This document shows positions 48,181-56,776 of a stretch of 64,000 nucleotides of DNA, in pieces. A program made the position numbers and the translations under genes. Every line of letters starts with the position of its first letter. Position 1 is the stretch's first letter. The notes beneath the pieces were generated by a model. That model worked only from the letters and a program-made list of their open reading frames with translations, did not search any database and was not told the origin of the DNA. Source of the DNA: an uncultured Arcobacteraceae bacterium (lineage in GTDB: Bacteria; Campylobacterota; Campylobacteria; Campylobacterales; Arcobacteraceae); the NCBI GenBank assembly GCA_964022095.1, contig CAXHZO010000002.1, positions 160,001 to 224,000 of the forward strand. The letters run 5' to 3'.

Positions 48181-49341
48181 TTAAAATTGAAATTTTTTAT
48201 TTAATTTGAAGAAATATAATACAGTTTTATATTGAACAAATATAAACGGTAACATTAAAGCAAAATAAGCAATAGAATATTTAGTTATAATTCCATTAAA
48301 TGTAAGTCCAAAGTTAATAAAAAACATTCCTAAAACCATAAAAGCAACACCTGGACAAATAAGTGCAAATGATATAGAAGATCTATCTTCAGAGTGAATA
48401 TATTTATCAAAATAACCAATGCTTTTCATGATTTTGTATCCAAGTAGTCCAAATAATATCTGTAAAGATAATATTGCTGATAATGTAATAAATAGATTTG
48501 TTTTTTGTATAGGGTCTTGGAAGTTATGATCTAATCCAAATGATAATCTTACAAATGTTATACCTAATAGTGTTAAAATAGGTATTATAATCCATAATGA
48601 AGGTGATGCTTCTATTGATATACCATTTTTAAATATACTTTTAATTCCAATAGTTAATTTAATAAATATTAATAAAATTGCTAATGAAGCAAAAAATATT
48701 GACCCAAAAAATGCAATGGCATTAATTACAATATTGTGACTCATCGCTGCAGGTGCTGCAAATCCAACTGCAACCATTGAAAAAGCGAAGATTGACATCA
48801 TTTGTGATAAGTTGTTATTTGTAGCAAAATCAAAATCACCTTTAATAATAAGTCTTGAAAAGTAATCAGAAAATATTTTTAAAGCAAAATACCCAGTTAC
48901 AATAAATCCAATAAGTGCAAATGGAAATAAAAATTGAACAATTCCCCATAATCCTGGAATAAATACAGCACCTAAAACAAAACAAACATTAATAGTCATT
49001 GTAAAAGTTAATGGAATAGCCATTAAACTTACCTGTGCATTTGAATTTTTCAAGTTTTCATATTCAACTGTTTTTTTATATTGATTAAACTGTTTTATAT
49101 TGAAAATTAATAGTTTAAAATGAAAAAATGCAAATGTTATTATAAATACAAGTGAAAAAGCAATTACATAAGATAACCAATCACCTTTTAATAGTGCTGG
49201 TAAAATTATATCAAACGTTGGCATCGGTGTTTTTGGATGAGGAACTAGGAACATTAAATACATAAAAAATGAAACACTTAATCCTCCTGCACCTAATGAA
49301 GCTAAGAAGCACATTGGTGAAAAGTTTTTTCTATAAGTCAT
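48181..49341 (-). CDS. Polytopic membrane protein, TsoY-like (Cys form)
   Basis: SPMCFLASLGAGGLSVSFFMYLMF, MTINVCF, ALICPGVA; about 10 TMs. Family name recalled, not searched. Confidence 0.55.
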   Translation of the reverse strand: MTYRKNFSPMCFLASLGAGGLSVSFFMYLMFLVPHPKTPMPTFDIILPALLKGDWLSYVIAFSLVFIITFAFFHFKLLIFNIKQFNQYKKTVEYENLKNSNAQVSLMAIPLTFTMTINVCFVLGAVFIPGLWGIVQFLFPFALIGFIVTGYFALKIFSDYFSRLIIKGDFDFATNNNLSQMMSIFAFSMVAVGFAAPAAMSHNIVINAIAFFGSIFFASLAILLIFIKLTIGIKSIFKNGISIEASPSLWIIIPILTLLGITFVRLSFGLDHNFQDPIQKTNLFITLSAILSLQILFGLLGYKIMKSIGYFDKYIHSEDRSSISFALICPGVAFMVLGMFFINFGLTFNGIITKYSIAYFALMLPFIFVQYKTVLYFFKLNKKFQF

Positions 49342-50734: not shown

Positions 50735-50762
50735 AAATAAAGAGAAGTTATTCTCTTTATTT
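50735..50762 (-). terminator. Hairpin at the end of the glutamate mutase operon
   Basis: AAATAAAGAGAA-gtta-TTCTCTTTATTT. Confidence 0.7.
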
Positions 50763-52328
50763 TGTAGTGATTTCTCTTTTTAATTCTTCTTTATTTATTC
50801 TATTTTTATCAGAAGGTATCAAAGGAAGTGATTTTTTATATACGATTTTAGAAGGGATCATATATGAAGCTAAATGCTTTTTTAATTCAAATAATATTTC
50901 ACTAGAGTTAAGTTCCGATAGTGCAGTATAAACTAAAACTATCTCTTCTTCAATCTCTTCATTTTCAATTGAGAATACTGCACATCTTTCAATTTGCTCA
51001 ATATTTGAATGTACAACTTCTTCAATTTCATATGGATTTACTCTAAATCCTCTTGTTTTAATCATATCATCATGTCTTGATACAAAGAAGAAATATCCCT
51101 CTTCATCTTTATAAACATAATCTCCAGTTTTTACAACAACTTCATCTCTTAGTTGTCCTTCAAGGTTGATTACATTTTTTAAAATATCAATTGACTTAAA
51201 TCTCTCTTGAGTCTCTTTAGGTGCATTCCAAAAACCTTTATAGATATAGCCACCTCTGTGAATTAACTCACCTACAACTCTAGGAGCACATTCCTTTCCA
51301 TTTTCATCTATTACATATAGTTCTACATCAGGAATTGCTTTTCCAATTGATTTTGGTCTAATTTTTAATTGTTCAGGATCTAAATAAGTTGATCTAAATG
51401 CTTCAGTTAAACCATGCATTGAATAAAATTTTGCACCTGTAAAGTATTTTTGTGTATCATCAATCATTTTTTGAGTTACATTTCCACCTGAAGAAGTTAT
51501 GGTTCTCACATTTTTAAGAAGTTCACTACTTGGTAATCTATGTTCATCTTCATCAAACATATCAGATATATTAATAGGCATTATAGGTAATACTGTAATA
51601 TTATCATTTATAATATGATTAAAGAAATCATTTGGTAAAACAAATCTATGAAGAGCTAAAGTTGCTCTTTTATAAAGGGAACAGAAAATTTGATTTAAAC
51701 CATAGTCTAAGTTAAAAATCAAAAGACCAGAAATTACATCTTCTTCTTTTAGCTCTAAATATTGAGATACAACTCTTGCACTGTCAATTAAATTTCTATG
51801 AGAAATTACAATTCCTTTTGGTTTTCCACTAAGTCCAAATGAGTAAGTAATAACTGCATTATCATGTCCATTTACATCACAAGAGTAGGGCTTATTATAA
51901 TATTTGTATATCTCTTCAAATGATGGCAAGTCTTTATGTGTAGTTTCATAAGATACTAAATGACCATCAAATTTAATCTCTTCGATTGATTCTATTTTGA
52001 TCTTATCAGTAATAATACACTTAATATCACAATCTTCAATTATATACTCAACTTGTTCTGGTTTTAGTAGTTTTGTTAGTGGCACTAATACATAATTCGT
52101 TGAAAGTATTGCTAAAATTGCAATTACTTGATCAACACATTTATTAGAGTAAATACCAATTCTACTACCACTTGGCAAATCAAGCTCATCTAAATAATAA
52201 GCAATTTGATTTACTTTAGTAAACAGTTCACTATAAGTTAATTTTTCATTCCCAAATACTAACGCAACTTTGTCTGGGTGCGATACATTTGCATCTTCTA
52301 TTAATGTTCTAATACAATTTATTGACAT
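50757..52328 (-). CDS. AMP-forming adenylation enzyme / acyl-CoA ligase-like
   Basis: GKPKGIVISHRNL, GLTEAFRST, SIGKAIP, TGDYV, RHDDMIKTRGFRV. P-loop is atypical (TYSFGLSG). Confidence 0.85.
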   Translation of the reverse strand: MSINCIRTLIEDANVSHPDKVALVFGNEKLTYSELFTKVNQIAYYLDELDLPSGSRIGIYSNKCVDQVIAILAILSTNYVLVPLTKLLKPEQVEYIIEDCDIKCIITDKIKIESIEEIKFDGHLVSYETTHKDLPSFEEIYKYYNKPYSCDVNGHDNAVITYSFGLSGKPKGIVISHRNLIDSARVVSQYLELKEEDVISGLLIFNLDYGLNQIFCSLYKRATLALHRFVLPNDFFNHIINDNITVLPIMPINISDMFDEDEHRLPSSELLKNVRTITSSGGNVTQKMIDDTQKYFTGAKFYSMHGLTEAFRSTYLDPEQLKIRPKSIGKAIPDVELYVIDENGKECAPRVVGELIHRGGYIYKGFWNAPKETQERFKSIDILKNVINLEGQLRDEVVVKTGDYVYKDEEGYFFFVSRHDDMIKTRGFRVNPYEIEEVVHSNIEQIERCAVFSIENEEIEEEIVLVYTALSELNSSEILFELKKHLASYMIPSKIVYKKSLPLIPSDKNRINKEELKREITTK

Positions 52329-52338
52329 ATTATTCCCT

Positions 52339-53526
52339 TTATTGTTGTGTTATACCTAAAGTCCAAATATCATAATTTGAATCTAAGATAATTGATGGAT
52401 AAACATCTGAAGTTAAAATCTTTTTGTAGAAGAATGAGATAATATCTTCAGTTTCTTCAAAACTAAGTACTTTTGTTATTCCACCTGTTAATACTATTGA
52501 TTTTAGTAAATTTAACTTTAATTTTATATATAAAGGATGAGCTTCACTAACTTTATATAATACTAAGAAAATAGCAAGTTGCATTAATATTCTAGTTGCT
52601 TTTGGTGATTCTTCTTCAAAAATATTCTCTGTAACTTTTAGATGAGCTAATAGTTCATAAACAAACTCATTGTTTTTTGCTGCAAAGATTAATGATTCTT
52701 TAGATTTAAAAACTCCTAGTTTTTTAAATACTAATCTATCATATTCATTTTCAGTCACCATATTATTATCAATTGCTAAGTCTTTAGAGTAGTGAATATC
52801 AGTAGTAGCTCCACCAATATCAATTAGAATAAATGGATTAACTGCCGCAAACTTACTATCAATAAGAGGTAGTGTTTTATTTACAATATATGGAGTTGAG
52901 TATATTTGATTTGAAGTTAGTTCATATAAGTGTTTGATATCTTCTTTACCCATAATATCAGCTTGATAAAGATTAGTTAAGTAATCTTTTAAAGGCTCTT
53001 CAACTACATGAAGTTTATTATCAATAATATTATCAACAACACTTAAATTATCAATTTTTCCTTTTAAGTAATCTTCATCTTTAGATGAACCTGCAAATAC
53101 AATATTTGAGTAGTTTAAATTATCTAAGAAATTAAATAGTTTTTCATCAAATACATCACTAACACTATCAATACCACCAGCAATAATAACTACATCAATT
53201 AAATCACTAGGAATTGAAGCACTATTTATATCTTGATATAAAATAGTATTAATAATATTAATTCCAGAGTTATAAGCAATATTTGTTGCATATTTAAGTG
53301 AAAAAGAGTTTGTAACTCCAATAATAAGTGTTGTTAATCCACCATTTGCAGAAGAACAAATATATACATCTTCTTTTTCAAATTTTGAAATAGTGTCTCC
53401 ACATTTTGAAGTTAAATCTTCAAAGATATCTTTATTAAAATCTCTAAAGTGTTGCTCAACATTTCCATTTGCACAAACTTTAAAGTATGTACTTCCTACA
53501 TCTACTAATAGTTTATTCTCTATCAT
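52339..53526 (-). CDS. glmL: Glutamate mutase accessory/reactivating ATPase
   Basis: VDVGSTYFK, CSSANGGL, IDIGGATTDIHY. Confidence 0.85.
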   Translation of the reverse strand: MIENKLLVDVGSTYFKVCANGNVEQHFRDFNKDIFEDLTSKCGDTISKFEKEDVYICSSANGGLTTLIIGVTNSFSLKYATNIAYNSGINIINTILYQDINSASIPSDLIDVVIIAGGIDSVSDVFDEKLFNFLDNLNYSNIVFAGSSKDEDYLKGKIDNLSVVDNIIDNKLHVVEEPLKDYLTNLYQADIMGKEDIKHLYELTSNQIYSTPYIVNKTLPLIDSKFAAVNPFILIDIGGATTDIHYSKDLAIDNNMVTENEYDRLVFKKLGVFKSKESLIFAAKNNEFVYELLAHLKVTENIFEEESPKATRILMQLAIFLVLYKVSEAHPLYIKLKLNLLKSIVLTGGITKVLSFEETEDIISFFYKKILTSDVYPSIILDSNYDIWTLGITQQ

Positions 53527-54887
53527 TGCATAATTCCTATATCATGAATAATATCATTTACGATTGATGAAGCATCTTTATTTAAGTCACATTGAGATTT
53601 CTCATACTTAAAACATCTATCACTTATTGGTAAATTACCTTTTTTGATGATTCTAATGTTTTTGTTTTTATCTCTAACTGTTACTACTTCATTGTGGTTG
53701 ATAATATGAGGAGAGTATGGACAGTCAATTATTCCTGATTTTATAGAGTTAAATACTTTTCTCCACAATGTATCAGCTTTATCATTGAATACAGCACTCA
53801 TAATACTCATAACTTCTTGAGTTAAAATTTCTTCTTCCATCTCATCTGTAATATCAGGAATCCCTTGAAGCATTCTAAGTGTATATTGAGTGTTTGCAAC
53901 TGTTTTTGCATTTGATTCTCTTGTTGGAATACCAAATGCTTCATCTCTAGTTTTTGTAATGATTTTGTCAGCTTTAACCATTGATGCAATTATTGTTGCA
54001 GTGTTAATTAGTGACTCAGAAAAATCTTTATTTGCAGGGAATGCTCCCATCCACTGATGATATACTAAGTGAATATCTGCATCAGCACAGTTGATTTGTT
54101 CTGCATAATGACGTGCTAGTTTTCTTAAAACTTTTGCTGTAACAATATCTTGAATCATTGATCCAGTTTGTGAAAATGATACAGAGAAAGATTTTACTCC
54201 CTCTTCAAGTGATAATAACATTTCACAAAGTTGAATGACAATAGTAACACAAGGTGGAACAAGTGTTGCAGTTAAAGGACCAAATGATTCTCTATTGATT
54301 GGTTCATTAAGTTTTGAGTAGTTTGCACAAACTCTCTCTACATATTTCCAATATAAAAATGCTTTATCAAGTGGAAAGTTTTTAGAGTATGGTAAAAGGT
54401 AAGTAATTGGACCACCTTCAATTTCAAAGATACCAGAAGCAATAGCAGTTTCAACTAATAGTCTTGCATCAGGAGTACCATGTCTTAATGATATTGGTTT
54501 ATTAAAGTTAGTCATCATTTTTCTAGTAGTTCTATATCCATGGTTAACTAGTGGATAACCATTTAACATATCTACATCATTTTCTTCACTAAGCTTAAGC
54601 ATCTTTGCTGCACTTGTATAGTCATTTAATCTTGTATTTGAATCAACTGTACAAGGTAAAACATCAACATCTGCATCAACGAAAAATTCGTAAAGTGAAA
54701 ACATCTTTTTATAAGTTGGGAATCCACCTCTTGGTTGAACCAACATTTTGTTTTTTGTTTTGAAATTGTGAGAAATAAATAAATCTTTTGAAGCGCCTTT
54801 TACGAACTCTTCAATCTCTGCAAAATCAAAATTATCTGCATATTTATTTTGAACGATTATATTTCGTTCTTCTTGAAGTAAACTCAA
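53523..54887 (-). CDS. glmE: Glutamate (methylaspartate) mutase large subunit E
   Basis: QPRGG, DSNTR, LNGYPLVNHG, RHGTPDAR, EGGPITY, NRESFGPL. Confidence 0.92.
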   Translation of the reverse strand: MSLLQEERNIIVQNKYADNFDFAEIEEFVKGASKDLFISHNFKTKNKMLVQPRGGFPTYKKMFSLYEFFVDADVDVLPCTVDSNTRLNDYTSAAKMLKLSEENDVDMLNGYPLVNHGYRTTRKMMTNFNKPISLRHGTPDARLLVETAIASGIFEIEGGPITYLLPYSKNFPLDKAFLYWKYVERVCANYSKLNEPINRESFGPLTATLVPPCVTIVIQLCEMLLSLEEGVKSFSVSFSQTGSMIQDIVTAKVLRKLARHYAEQINCADADIHLVYHQWMGAFPANKDFSESLINTATIIASMVKADKIITKTRDEAFGIPTRESNAKTVANTQYTLRMLQGIPDITDEMEEEILTQEVMSIMSAVFNDKADTLWRKVFNSIKSGIIDCPYSPHIINHNEVVTVRDKNKNIRIIKKGNLPISDRCFKYEKSQCDLNKDASSIVNDIIHDIGIMQ

Positions 54888-55291
54888 TTTCTCTCCTCCA
54901 AGTATTTTTCTAATTCATTTAGTCCTGTATTTAAATCTACTTGGTGAAATACTAAATCAAAACCATAGTTTTTAAATCTTGGTACGATTTCATCAGCATT
55001 TCCTTCACCAACGGCTAAGTTTCCACCTAGCATAAATACAACATCTTTTAAGTTTTTATATTTTGATTTTAGAATATTTAATTCTCTACACCAACCTTCG
55101 GCTTCCCCGTTAAGTGATGAGATTAACAGCACATCTGCATTTGTTTCAATTACAGCGTCTATAAACTCTTCTAAATAAGTGTTAACACCTAAATTAAATA
55201 CTTCAAATCCTCTTGCTTGTAGTGATATATCAATTAGTCTATTTGCAACTACATGAATATCATTACCAACTACTCCAGTAACTACTTTCAT
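54884..55291 (-). CDS. mamA: Glutamate mutase B12-binding small subunit S
   Basis: GVVGNDIHVVANR (DxH), SSLNG, LGGNL. Confidence 0.9.
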   Translation of the reverse strand: MKVVTGVVGNDIHVVANRLIDISLQARGFEVFNLGVNTYLEEFIDAVIETNADVLLISSLNGEAEGWCRELNILKSKYKNLKDVVFMLGGNLAVGEGNADEIVPRFKNYGFDLVFHQVDLNTGLNELEKYLEERN

Positions 55292-55395
55292 ATCTTTTAC
55301 CTAAATATTTATAATTTTTTTTATTGAAAAGTCAGCGATAATATCTAATTTTCGGTTAGAAAAAGATTAGAATTGAGGGTTTTAAGAGGTTTTAG

Positions 55396-55429
55396 AGATT
55401 TTCTAAGACTAAATAGTCTTAGAAAATCT
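55396..55429 (-). terminator. 15-bp stem spanning the hemN stop codon
   Basis: AGATTTTCTAAGACT-aaat-AGTCTTAGAAAATCT. Confidence 0.6.
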
Positions 55430-56776
55430 TCTTTTTTCTTCAGGAATTCTATTTAAATATGCATCAAATGGCATACAAATATTTCTAATAAGCATAGAAC
55501 CAGTTTGATTTACTTCAATTTTATCATCACTTAATGTTAAAAGTTCAGCTTCTTCGAACTCTTTTAAAGCTTCTAATGCATCACAGAAGTATTCTTTAAA
55601 GTTTACATTAAATTGTTCTTCAACTCTTGTGATGTTCAGTGAGAAATTACTCATAAGTTCCATGATAACAAATTGTCTTAATTGGTCATCATCACTTAGT
55701 CTGTACCCTTTAAATGTTGGTAAATTACCATTATCAATAGCATCTTCCCAAGGTTTTAAATCTTTGAAGTTTTGGGCATAGTAATCAACTCCATTACCAA
55801 TAGAAGTAAGACCAATTCCTATTAAATCAGCTCCACCTTTGGTAGTATAACCTTGGAAGTTTCTATGTAGTTCACCTTTTTTAATTGCTTTAAATAGTTC
55901 ATCTTGAGGTTTTGCAAAATGATCCATTCCTACCATTTCATAACCATTTGATGTAAAGAAATCAATTGTATCTTTTAACATCTCAAGTTTTTCTTGAGGT
56001 TGAGGAAATGTTGTTTCATCAAACTTTCTCATTGTTTTCATAAGCCATGGAACATGAGCATAGTTAAATACTGCAAATCTATCAGTATCTAGTGTAATCA
56101 TTTTTTCTAAAGTCTTTTTAAATGATTCTTTAGTTTGATGTGGTAATCCATAAATTAAGTCCGTATTAATAGAGTGAATTCCAGCTTCTCTAGCTATTTT
56201 AATTACATTTTGAGTTAATTCAAATGGTTGAATTCTATGAATAGTTTTTTGAACAGTCTCATCTAAGTCTTGAACACCAAAACTTAGTCTATTACATCCA
56301 CCTTTTTTAAGAACATCCATGTGTTCTTTAGTGAAAAATCTAGGATCAACTTCACACGAAATTTCAGCATCATCGCTAAAGTTTGGAAAAATTTCTTTTA
56401 TTGCTACAATTACTTCATTTAATTGTTCTGGTGAAAAAAATGTTGGAGTTCCTCCACCAAAGTGCATTTGAGTAACTGTTCTTTGAGTATTAAGATGTTG
56501 TTTTAATATATTTAGCTCTTTTTTTAAATACTCTATATATCTTACTTTTTTATCTTCTTTAGAAGTAAAGATTGTATTACATCCACAAAAATAACAAGCA
56601 CTTCTACAAAATGGCATATGTATATAAAGTGATATTGCCCTATCATCACTTTGATTTTTATAGTAATCTTTTAAATCTTCTTGTGTGAATTGTTCACTAA
56701 ATTCAGGTGCTGTAGGATATGAAGTATATCTTGGACCTGGTTTAGAATATTTTACAAATTTATTAAAGTCAATCAT
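55409..56776 (-). CDS. hemN: Oxygen-independent coproporphyrinogen III oxidase
   Basis: [38 protein letters not shown]. Confidence 0.96.

Follow-up and report, generated by a model that had tools for sequence, protein, structure and literature searches.

An operon of four genes in an uncultured Arcobacteraceae bacterium has, judged from its sequence, an even chance of serving to make 3-methylaspartate and to activate it. The operon lies in a stretch of 64,000 nucleotides, hereafter the window (GenBank assembly GCA_964022095.1, contig CAXHZO010000002.1, positions 160,001 to 224,000; C2:160001-224000 in our numbering), of a 2.57-Mb genome that is 99.99% complete. It codes for the two subunits of a B12-dependent glutamate mutase, a GlmL-like ATPase and an adenylate-forming ligase. 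The module is neither fermentative, since a methylaspartate ammonia-lyase is missing, nor part of a polyketide synthase (PKS) or non-ribosomal peptide synthetase (NRPS) cluster. Its family assignments, conserved substrate residues, gene linkage and missing partners are read directly from the following features:

54884–55291, minus strand: mutS-like gene, small subunit of glutamate mutase with a B12-binding Rossmann domain (135 amino acids)
53523–54887, minus strand: mutE-like gene, catalytic subunit of glutamate mutase (454 amino acids), with a TTG start overlapping the mutS stop
52339–53526, minus strand: gene for a short, divergent GlmL/MutL-like ATPase, presumed to be a mutase chaperone or reactivase (395 amino acids)
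50757–52328, minus strand: gene for a stand-alone adenylate-forming ligase, VinN-like/TIGR03098-like, with 3-methylaspartate (or aspartate) as predicted substrate (523 amino acids)
50735–50762, minus strand: 12-bp hairpin over the ligase stop codon, found by folding and likely the operon end
55292–55408, minus strand: 117-nucleotide leader between hemN and mutS, covered by an Rfam scan and a repeat search

An earlier note on this DNA had described four coupled genes closed by a hairpin, and the reading frames, spacing and fold agree with that description. The genes for S and E overlap by 4 nucleotides (TTGA), as do those for E and L (ATGA), and a gap of 10 nucleotides with a Shine-Dalgarno-like AGGGA precedes the ligase gene. 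The terminal hairpin had a folding energy of −11.2 kcal/mol (z = −5.77) and none of 200 shuffled sequences folded equally well; it is AU-rich, and the consensus terminator scan gave no flag there.

As to the enzyme substrates, reaction order, acceptor and end product, we infer the following scheme. An adenosylcobalamin-type mutase, consisting of S, E and the divergent GlmL-like helper, would convert L-glutamate to (2S,3S)-3-methylaspartate. The ligase would bind this product in the manner of VinN, as a β-amino acid with its amino group on an aspartate and its α-carboxylate on an arginine, and would activate the β-carboxyl group with ATP. The activated acyl group would then be passed to an acceptor outside the operon, for which coenzyme A (CoA), the housekeeping AcpP, and an amine or hydroxyl group of a cell component are candidates.

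The mutase subunits S and E together look like a true glutamate mutase, because the substrate residues of GlmE are conserved. The mutE product matched PF06368 (Met_asp_mut_E) with 384 bits and the solved GlmE structures (PDB 6h9e/1cb7) with an E-value of 2.5e-80; on the stricter equivalog model TIGR01503 it scored 368.5 bits, under the cut-off of 390.1. The residues that we take to be the substrate-binding set of Clostridium cochlearium GlmE (R66, R100, R149, H150, E171, Y177, and Y181) were all identical in MutE when aligned to chain B of 6h9e. The motifs QPRGG, DSNTR, LRHGT, and IEGGPITYLLPY were invariant or nearly so across 76 relatives, and the glutamate motifs pointed out earlier (QPR, DSNTR, RHG, and EGG) are thus present and aligned with GlmE of 6h9e/1cb7. 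The mutS product matched PF02310 with 49.1 bits and NF002612 with 165.9 bits, above the cut-off of 110, and retained the SSL and GG elements. Its B12 motif reads DIHVVA, with alanine for the glycine of DxHxxG, as had been noticed before, and the surrounding GNDIHVVANR was invariant in 73 of 73 relatives. Other MutS-like proteins carry DAHMIG and DSHTWN at this site, so the last position of the motif is variable within the family. The GlmL-like product is the most divergent of the three: it matched PF13941 (MutL) with 100.6 bits over profile positions 2–314 of 450 only, scored 80.3 bits on the GlmL equivalog NF040745 (cut-off 475), which places it outside full-length GlmL, and is 395 amino acids long vs. 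476 for the canonical MutL at a gammaproteobacterial locus described below (L113).

The ligase matched PF00501 (AMP-binding) with 207 bits. Its best NCBIfam model was TIGR03098, with 423 bits over the full length and a cut-off of 592.35. The best whole-length matches in PDB were the NRPS adenylation domains LgrA (7e-64), TycA and GrsA (2.9e-38), and VinN (3wvn, 2.2e-35), so that the closest solved relatives are amino-acid adenylation domains rather than fatty-acid ligases; the aspartate that anchors the substrate amino group in such domains is present. When the pocket region alone (residues 190–378) was searched, VinN (3wv4/3wv5/3wvn) was the top match in PDB with an E-value of 4.9e-14, the runner-up having 4.9e-08. 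According to an excerpt of PMC11253843, the pocket of VinN is formed by D230, F231, S299, K330, and R331, and its β13–β14 loop is shorter by a single residue, which enables 3-methylaspartate to bind as a β-amino acid. In the alignment, D230, S299, and R331 were identical in the ligase, F231 was conservatively replaced by tyrosine, and the β13–β14 loop aligned without a gap and had the same length as in VinN; the VinN chain numbering, shifted by 16 relative to that of the authors, was fixed by DF = D230-F231 and KR = K330-R331. The motifs LDYG, TSSGG, and EAFRS were kept in 82 of 82 cassette ligases. The pocket is therefore specifically VinN-like, and the ligase may be selective for (2S,3S)-3-methylaspartate.

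The ligase and mutase genes are linked in an almost obligate manner, for which a shared metabolite is the simplest explanation. Of the 80 genomic loci found to contain the ligase, 67 are informative, their upstream sequence being 3.1 kb or longer; the order S-E-L-ligase was found within 3.4 kb in 66 of these, across two phyla, so that the four-gene conservation which the earlier note had asked about is established. The single exception was locus L061, whose genome has MutE on another contig. Database relatives of MutE numbered 1784 at E ≤ 0.001. The best 120 were all 80–89% identical, with names including Malaciobacter, Halarcobacter, Sulfurimonas, Amphritea, Thalassotalea, Litorilituus, and HTCC2143, and cassette proteins of marine Gammaproteobacteria had identities of 70–82%. 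Of 184 Arcobacteraceae species genomes, 129 (from 18 of 22 genera) encode MutE and 111 the ligase (E ≤ 1e-100). The operon is shared by further environmental Campylobacterales. Among 301 evenly sampled Campylobacterota genomes, 20 had MutE; they belong to 5 of 14 families, and the two largest families had none (0/90 and 0/124). MutE occurred in 6 of 300 sampled gammaproteobacterial genomes, and in four of these the ligase gene lay on the same contig at a distance of about 3 kb. In a FastTree phylogeny of concatenated MutE and ligase (72 rows, midpoint root only), the 11 gammaproteobacterial rows formed one clade (support 99) nested in the Campylobacterota diversity and joined Sulfurimonadaceae in a clade of 22 rows (support 100). 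This topology fits a single transfer of the cassette into Gammaproteobacteria.

Methylaspartate ammonia-lyase (TIGR01502) was found neither in the window nor in the whole genome at E ≤ 0.001, and in 0 of 184 Arcobacteraceae genomes, which extends the earlier observation that the window has no lyase; the controls for this search included no genome with a true lyase, and three of them rang weakly without exceeding the cut-off. The cassette is not adjoined by PKS or NRPS genes. Glutamate mutase is known as a partner of the lyase in amino-acid fermentation and from a small number of antibiotic clusters in actinomycetes, and our search of the full-text literature found no paper on the four-gene cassette. 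Here the same chemistry is placed in a four-gene, ligase-coupled operon of marine Campylobacterota and Gammaproteobacteria that lacks the usual partners of either step.

Vicenistatin biosynthesis in Streptomyces halstedii offers the closest comparison: according to an excerpt of PMC11284099, it involves the glutamate mutase VinH/VinI, the 3-methylaspartate adenylation enzyme VinN, the acyl carrier protein (ACP) VinL and the pyridoxal phosphate (PLP)-dependent decarboxylase VinO. Both systems combine a glutamate mutase with a stand-alone adenylating enzyme, and VinN was the top pocket match, with the aspartate, aromatic, serine and arginine positions and the loop length kept. In contrast to the vicenistatin genes, the cassette has no ACP, PLP decarboxylase or PKS, has phenylalanine at the position of K330, and contains a GlmL-like gene; it also sits amid housekeeping genes and has been passed down in entire families of Campylobacterota, whereas the former belong to a secondary-metabolite cluster of an actinomycete. 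The vicenistatin logic drawn upon in the earlier note thus held as far as the pairing of a mutase with a VinN-like ligase is concerned, but it is complicated by a ligase-less subclade and by the association of the mutase with an RraA-like gene and, in Gammaproteobacteria, an AspC-like transaminase, both treated below; the latter association suits a different sink, 2-oxobutyrate. With the clostridial GlmS/GlmE/GlmL system the cassette shares the S, E and L set and an E subunit that matches 6h9e/1cb7 with its substrate residues kept. It differs in the missing lyase, the attached ligase, the short and divergent GlmL, the DxHxxA in place of DxHxxG, and the gene order, which is S-E-L vs. S-L-E in clostridia.

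A sister family of the ligase is found at exosortase loci. Seven true TIGR03098 ligases, about 33% identical to the cassette ligase, were read, and the pocket motifs FDYG/SGG/GLTEAFRST were common to all seven, one of which has FDAG. The connection that had been drawn from GLTEAFRST to ligases of exosortase loci is borne out by these sequences. At four of the seven loci, an open reading frame (ORF) beside or overlapping the ligase gene scored 596–624 bits on TIGR03099, above its cut-off, and at the remaining three the neighboring ORF of about 410 amino acids was left unscanned. The tallies of 42/301 and 30/301 in the underlying survey include genomes G329 and G484, which are flagged as unpublished and lie outside the loci read. 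The TIGR03098/TIGR03099 pair mirrors the VinN/VinO arrangement, and at one exopolysaccharide (EPS) locus an ACP is encoded between two such ligases. TIGR03098 is the top NCBIfam model for the cassette ligase, which shares the pocket motifs; however, the latter falls under the TIGR03098 cut-off, and the cassette has no adjoining TIGR03099 decarboxylase, exosortase or EPS context. By score and by adjacency, then, the cassette ligase is not a TIGR03098 member.

Several results weigh against a role of the operon in making and activating 3-methylaspartate. No acceptor is encoded in the operon. The earlier note had suggested looking for carrier proteins and a PLP decarboxylase, and this search turned out negative: the genome has a single PP-binding protein, which is AcpP-like, and none lies in the operon; phmmer with the ACP of the EPS locus against all ORFs of at least 50 amino acids recovered the same protein alone; and the top score for a VinO/TIGR03099-type decarboxylase in the genome was 228.6 vs. 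a cut-off of 478, given by a LysA-like ORF. ORFs of 74–79 amino acids inside variant cassettes gave no carrier-protein match either. Fused forms of the cassette-ligase clade were not found among longer proteins. In the pocket, K330 of VinN is replaced by phenylalanine. One genus has MutE in 24 of 28 genomes and the ligase in just 10, and in three complete genomes of that genus S-E-L was intact with no TIGR03098-like ligase at E ≤ 1e-40, so there 3-methylaspartate must serve a use independent of the ligase. An RraA-like gene also tracks the mutase about as closely as the ligase does. The make-and-activate proposal of the earlier note has therefore fared unevenly: the mutase residues, the VinN-like pocket, the linkage and the missing lyase speak for it, whereas a dedicated carrier, a decarboxylase and PKS/NRPS genes are lacking. 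For the lipid or glycan that it suggested as destination, the only hint comes from distant fusions (≤ 34% identity) in which a TIGR03098-like ligase is joined to an Acyl_transf_3 or glycosyltransferase domain.

The supply of adenosylcobalamin is a further point on the same side, since neither PduO/EutT-type nor CobA-type adenosyltransferases were found in the genomes searched. The CobA/BtuR type (PF02572) was absent from the genome under study and from 151 Arcobacteraceae genomes (0/151). For the PduO type (PF01923, which presumably also covers EutT), the counts were 0 of 2 in the genus and two marginal hits in 184 Arcobacteraceae genomes, with no match in one Colwellia and one Sulfurimonas host; controls for the adenosyltransferase searches gave hits in 7 and 9 genomes out of 14. 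B12-binding domains in the genome under study are limited to a MetH-like ORF of 1165 amino acids and MutS, which makes the mutase the sole evident client of adenosylcobalamin. Uptake of ready-made adenosylcobalamin may be one source.

Possibly, if on the unlikely side, the mutase mainly feeds 2-oxobutyrate and the ligase is a side branch or has another role. Glutamate would be converted to 3-methylaspartate, this to 3-methyloxaloacetate by an AspC-like transaminase, and this to 2-oxobutyrate through decarboxylation by an RraA-like protein. The steps past the mutase follow L-isoleucine biosynthesis III of MetaCyc; the action of an RraA-like protein on 3-methyloxaloacetate is our own suggestion, which weakens the route. 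Upstream of mutS, an RraA-like gene was found in 43 of 59 loci, directly adjoining and divergent in 22 of them, and this association spans Gammaproteobacteria, Sulfurimonas and several Arcobacteraceae genera. The RraA-family gene is short and scored 137–155 bits on NF006875, above the cut-off of 136, in two of three examined, and NCBIfam ties the family to oxaloacetate decarboxylase/aldolase models. At gammaproteobacterial loci there is in addition an AspC/TyrB-type transaminase (566 bits), itself a second paralog in all 3 genomes examined for this, and in the ligase-less genome G119 RraA adjoins S-E-L. Across Arcobacteraceae the pattern of RraA hits by genus mirrors that of MutE (137/184 genomes). 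Within one genus an RraA ortholog (E ≤ 1e-72) was present in 22 of 23 MutE-positive and 0 of 21 MutE-negative genomes, although these are kin and not independent, and the threshold was picked after the table had been inspected; in complete genomes of this genus, RraA and the mutase lie 73–255 kb apart. We regard the association of RraA with the mutase as a lead rather than a test. The set of mutase, transaminase and RraA-like protein fits, by family assignment, a route from 2-oxoglutarate to 2-oxobutyrate. Likewise, isoleucine biosynthesis III has glutamate mutase as its first step, and AspC-like and RraA-like genes flank the mutase in related loci. MetaCyc lists this glutamate-mutase route, on which reliance by any organism is described as not demonstrated in an excerpt of the GapMind preprint. 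However, the ligase does not fit into the pathway, the translationally coupled and best-conserved partner is left unexplained, and the genome under study encodes a full threonine dehydratase IlvA (502.8 bits, above cut-off), which makes its isoleucine synthesis independent of the mutase route. Of the four RraA-like genes in that genome, the best ortholog is unlinked, at 143 kb from the operon. Activation of 3-methylaspartate and its conversion to 2-oxobutyrate are compatible, as both need the product of the mutase.

It appears improbable that the mutase or the ligase uses a different substrate (the former a glutamate analogue, or the latter plain aspartate like its exosortase-linked relatives), in which case their pairing would reflect something else, possibly cofactor handling. 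The scores of MutE (368.5 vs. 390.1) and GlmL (80 vs. 475) under their equivalog cut-offs, the change from DxHxxG to DxHxxA, the occurrence of the same pocket motifs in TIGR03098 relatives that have no mutase, and the failure to find a known adenosyltransferase in the family would all agree with this, but all glutamate-binding residues of GlmE are conserved and the near-obligate linkage of ligase and mutase best fits a shared metabolite. Less probable still is a lyase-free catabolism of glutamate, in which 3-methylaspartate would be converted to a CoA thioester, deaminated to mesaconyl-CoA and cleaved by a CitE-like enzyme. Two weak CitE/malyl-CoA-lyase-like ORFs (56 and 34 bits) are present in the genome, but they are unlinked and far under the family cut-offs. 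The tripartite ATP-independent periplasmic (TRAP) DctP protein encoded beside RraA in some Sulfurimonas loci and the different MutE type within a CoA-ester catabolic cluster of one gammaproteobacterium (L113) point in the direction of such catabolism. On the other hand, no enzyme for deaminating such a thioester was identified, simpler routes of glutamate catabolism exist, and the ligase pocket and nearest families indicate biosynthetic activation of an amino acid.

A wider reading, speculative and as a whole rather doubtful, is that free-living marine Campylobacterota possess a self-contained 3-methylaspartate system resembling primary metabolism, which would have been passed once to marine Gammaproteobacteria and whose mutase, working with no known adenosyltransferase, would depend on scavenged adenosylcobalamin or on a novel mode of loading by the divergent GlmL-like protein or another operon member. 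As part of the same joint proposal, the system would have two sinks: a carrier-free, VinN-like activation of the β-carboxyl group toward an undiscovered metabolite or a decoration of the cell surface, and an RraA-like/AspC-like route to 2-oxobutyrate that would be the first case of 'isoleucine III' at the level of genes.

If making and activating 3-methylaspartate is indeed the role of the operon, many abundant marine bacteria of the sulfur cycle would spend B12 on a 3-methylaspartate-derived product, which bears on their need for this vitamin, and the uncharacterized exosortase-linked ligase family would gain a substrate hypothesis. Candidate genes would also be at hand for a pathway from 2-oxoglutarate to 2-oxobutyrate on which, according to the same excerpt of the GapMind preprint, no organism has been shown to rely.

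Some variation was observed around the RraA-like genes. A presumed RraA catalytic motif gave no match by regular expression, and no claim is based on this. The RraA ortholog of the genome under study, outside the window at G000:C2:356534-357010 (locus L083:1480-1959), is followed with overlapping stop and start codons by an ORF of about 185 amino acids, an arrangement also seen at L016, L036, and L070; this ORF was weakly similar to ChaC (gamma-glutamylcyclotransferase) in two of the four (23.9 and 23.7 bits). Several Sulfurimonas loci have the TRAP DctP binding protein next to RraA. In Halarcobacter, a minus-strand ORF of 696 amino acids (L023:523-2613) with DinB_2, FGE-sulfatase and methyltransferase domains, an architecture that we take to be OvoA-like, of the ovothiol type, adjoins the RraA-like gene.

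Two mutase loci of other types were encountered. Locus L113 (G384:C2:92000-107924) encodes a distant MutE (505 amino acids, 26% identical), MutS and a full-length MutL (476 amino acids) among acyl-CoA dehydrogenases, an enoyl-CoA hydratase, an AMP-ligase, PrpD-like and thiolase-like proteins and a GntR regulator, and its mutase may work in a CoA-ester catabolic pathway. Locus L114 (G396:C1:332000-349000) contains a class II aminoacyl-tRNA-synthetase-like ORF (311 amino acids), MutS with DSHTWN, MutE (435 amino acids), and a major facilitator superfamily transporter, with tblastn matches to adenylation-domain-like sequence and a TonB-dependent receptor in the vicinity; it looks like a siderophore-type cluster using 3-methylaspartate.

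Insertions within the cassette occurred in two other genera, either on the mutE side or on the ligase side of glmL (L098:6803-7575, L099:8722-12217, and L100:6509-8101). The inserted genes code for a zeta-toxin-like kinase accompanied by a small ORF, a NACHT/pentapeptide protein of 907 amino acids, and a response regulator along with a KilA-N fragment; they were rejected as parts of the pathway, being selfish or unrelated by appearance. Alpha/beta hydrolases near some Arcobacter cassettes were also set aside, as they are generic BioH/MenH-like proteins, inconsistently linked, with homologs in the genome under study that lie outside the window. In Sulfurimonas, an ORF designated unk331 is located downstream of the cassette and travels with metG. 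The cassette of a contig labelled Candidatus Paceibacteria (L008) nests among Aliarcobacter and was probably misbinned. Identical copies on two contigs of one metagenome-assembled genome (L003 and L004) and on two of G022 reflect either duplication or assembly redundancy.

The nearest relatives of the genome under study bear Arcobacter/Aliarcobacter names, and DNA of the window occurs in marine and seawater metagenome runs; none of the runs listed for it is recorded as RNA. Contigs from runs that were only guessed to be RNA span parts of the operon, including 54643–55288 over the S/E junction, and were counted neither way. Upstream of mutS, no match to a riboswitch or leader RNA was obtained in Rfam at E-values up to 1, and a 16-bp inverted repeat (55395–55430) overlaps the 3' end of hemN. 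Promoter calls were discarded, since the scan found 35 sites vs. 37.5 in shuffled sequences, i.e., none beyond shuffle level. The operon sits among core genes, as stated earlier: according to Pfam and NCBIfam, one flank holds the housekeeping genes hemN, ornithine carbamoyltransferase and nrdD. On the other flank are a small ORF that resembles c-type cytochromes, a gene for a GGDEF protein and a homolog of the TsoY-family (seleno)proteins (48181–49341, minus strand; 514.5 bits on NF047644). This downstream trio, in which the cytochrome-like ORF has 91 amino acids and a CxxCH motif, is kept as an arrangement in Arcobacteraceae only.

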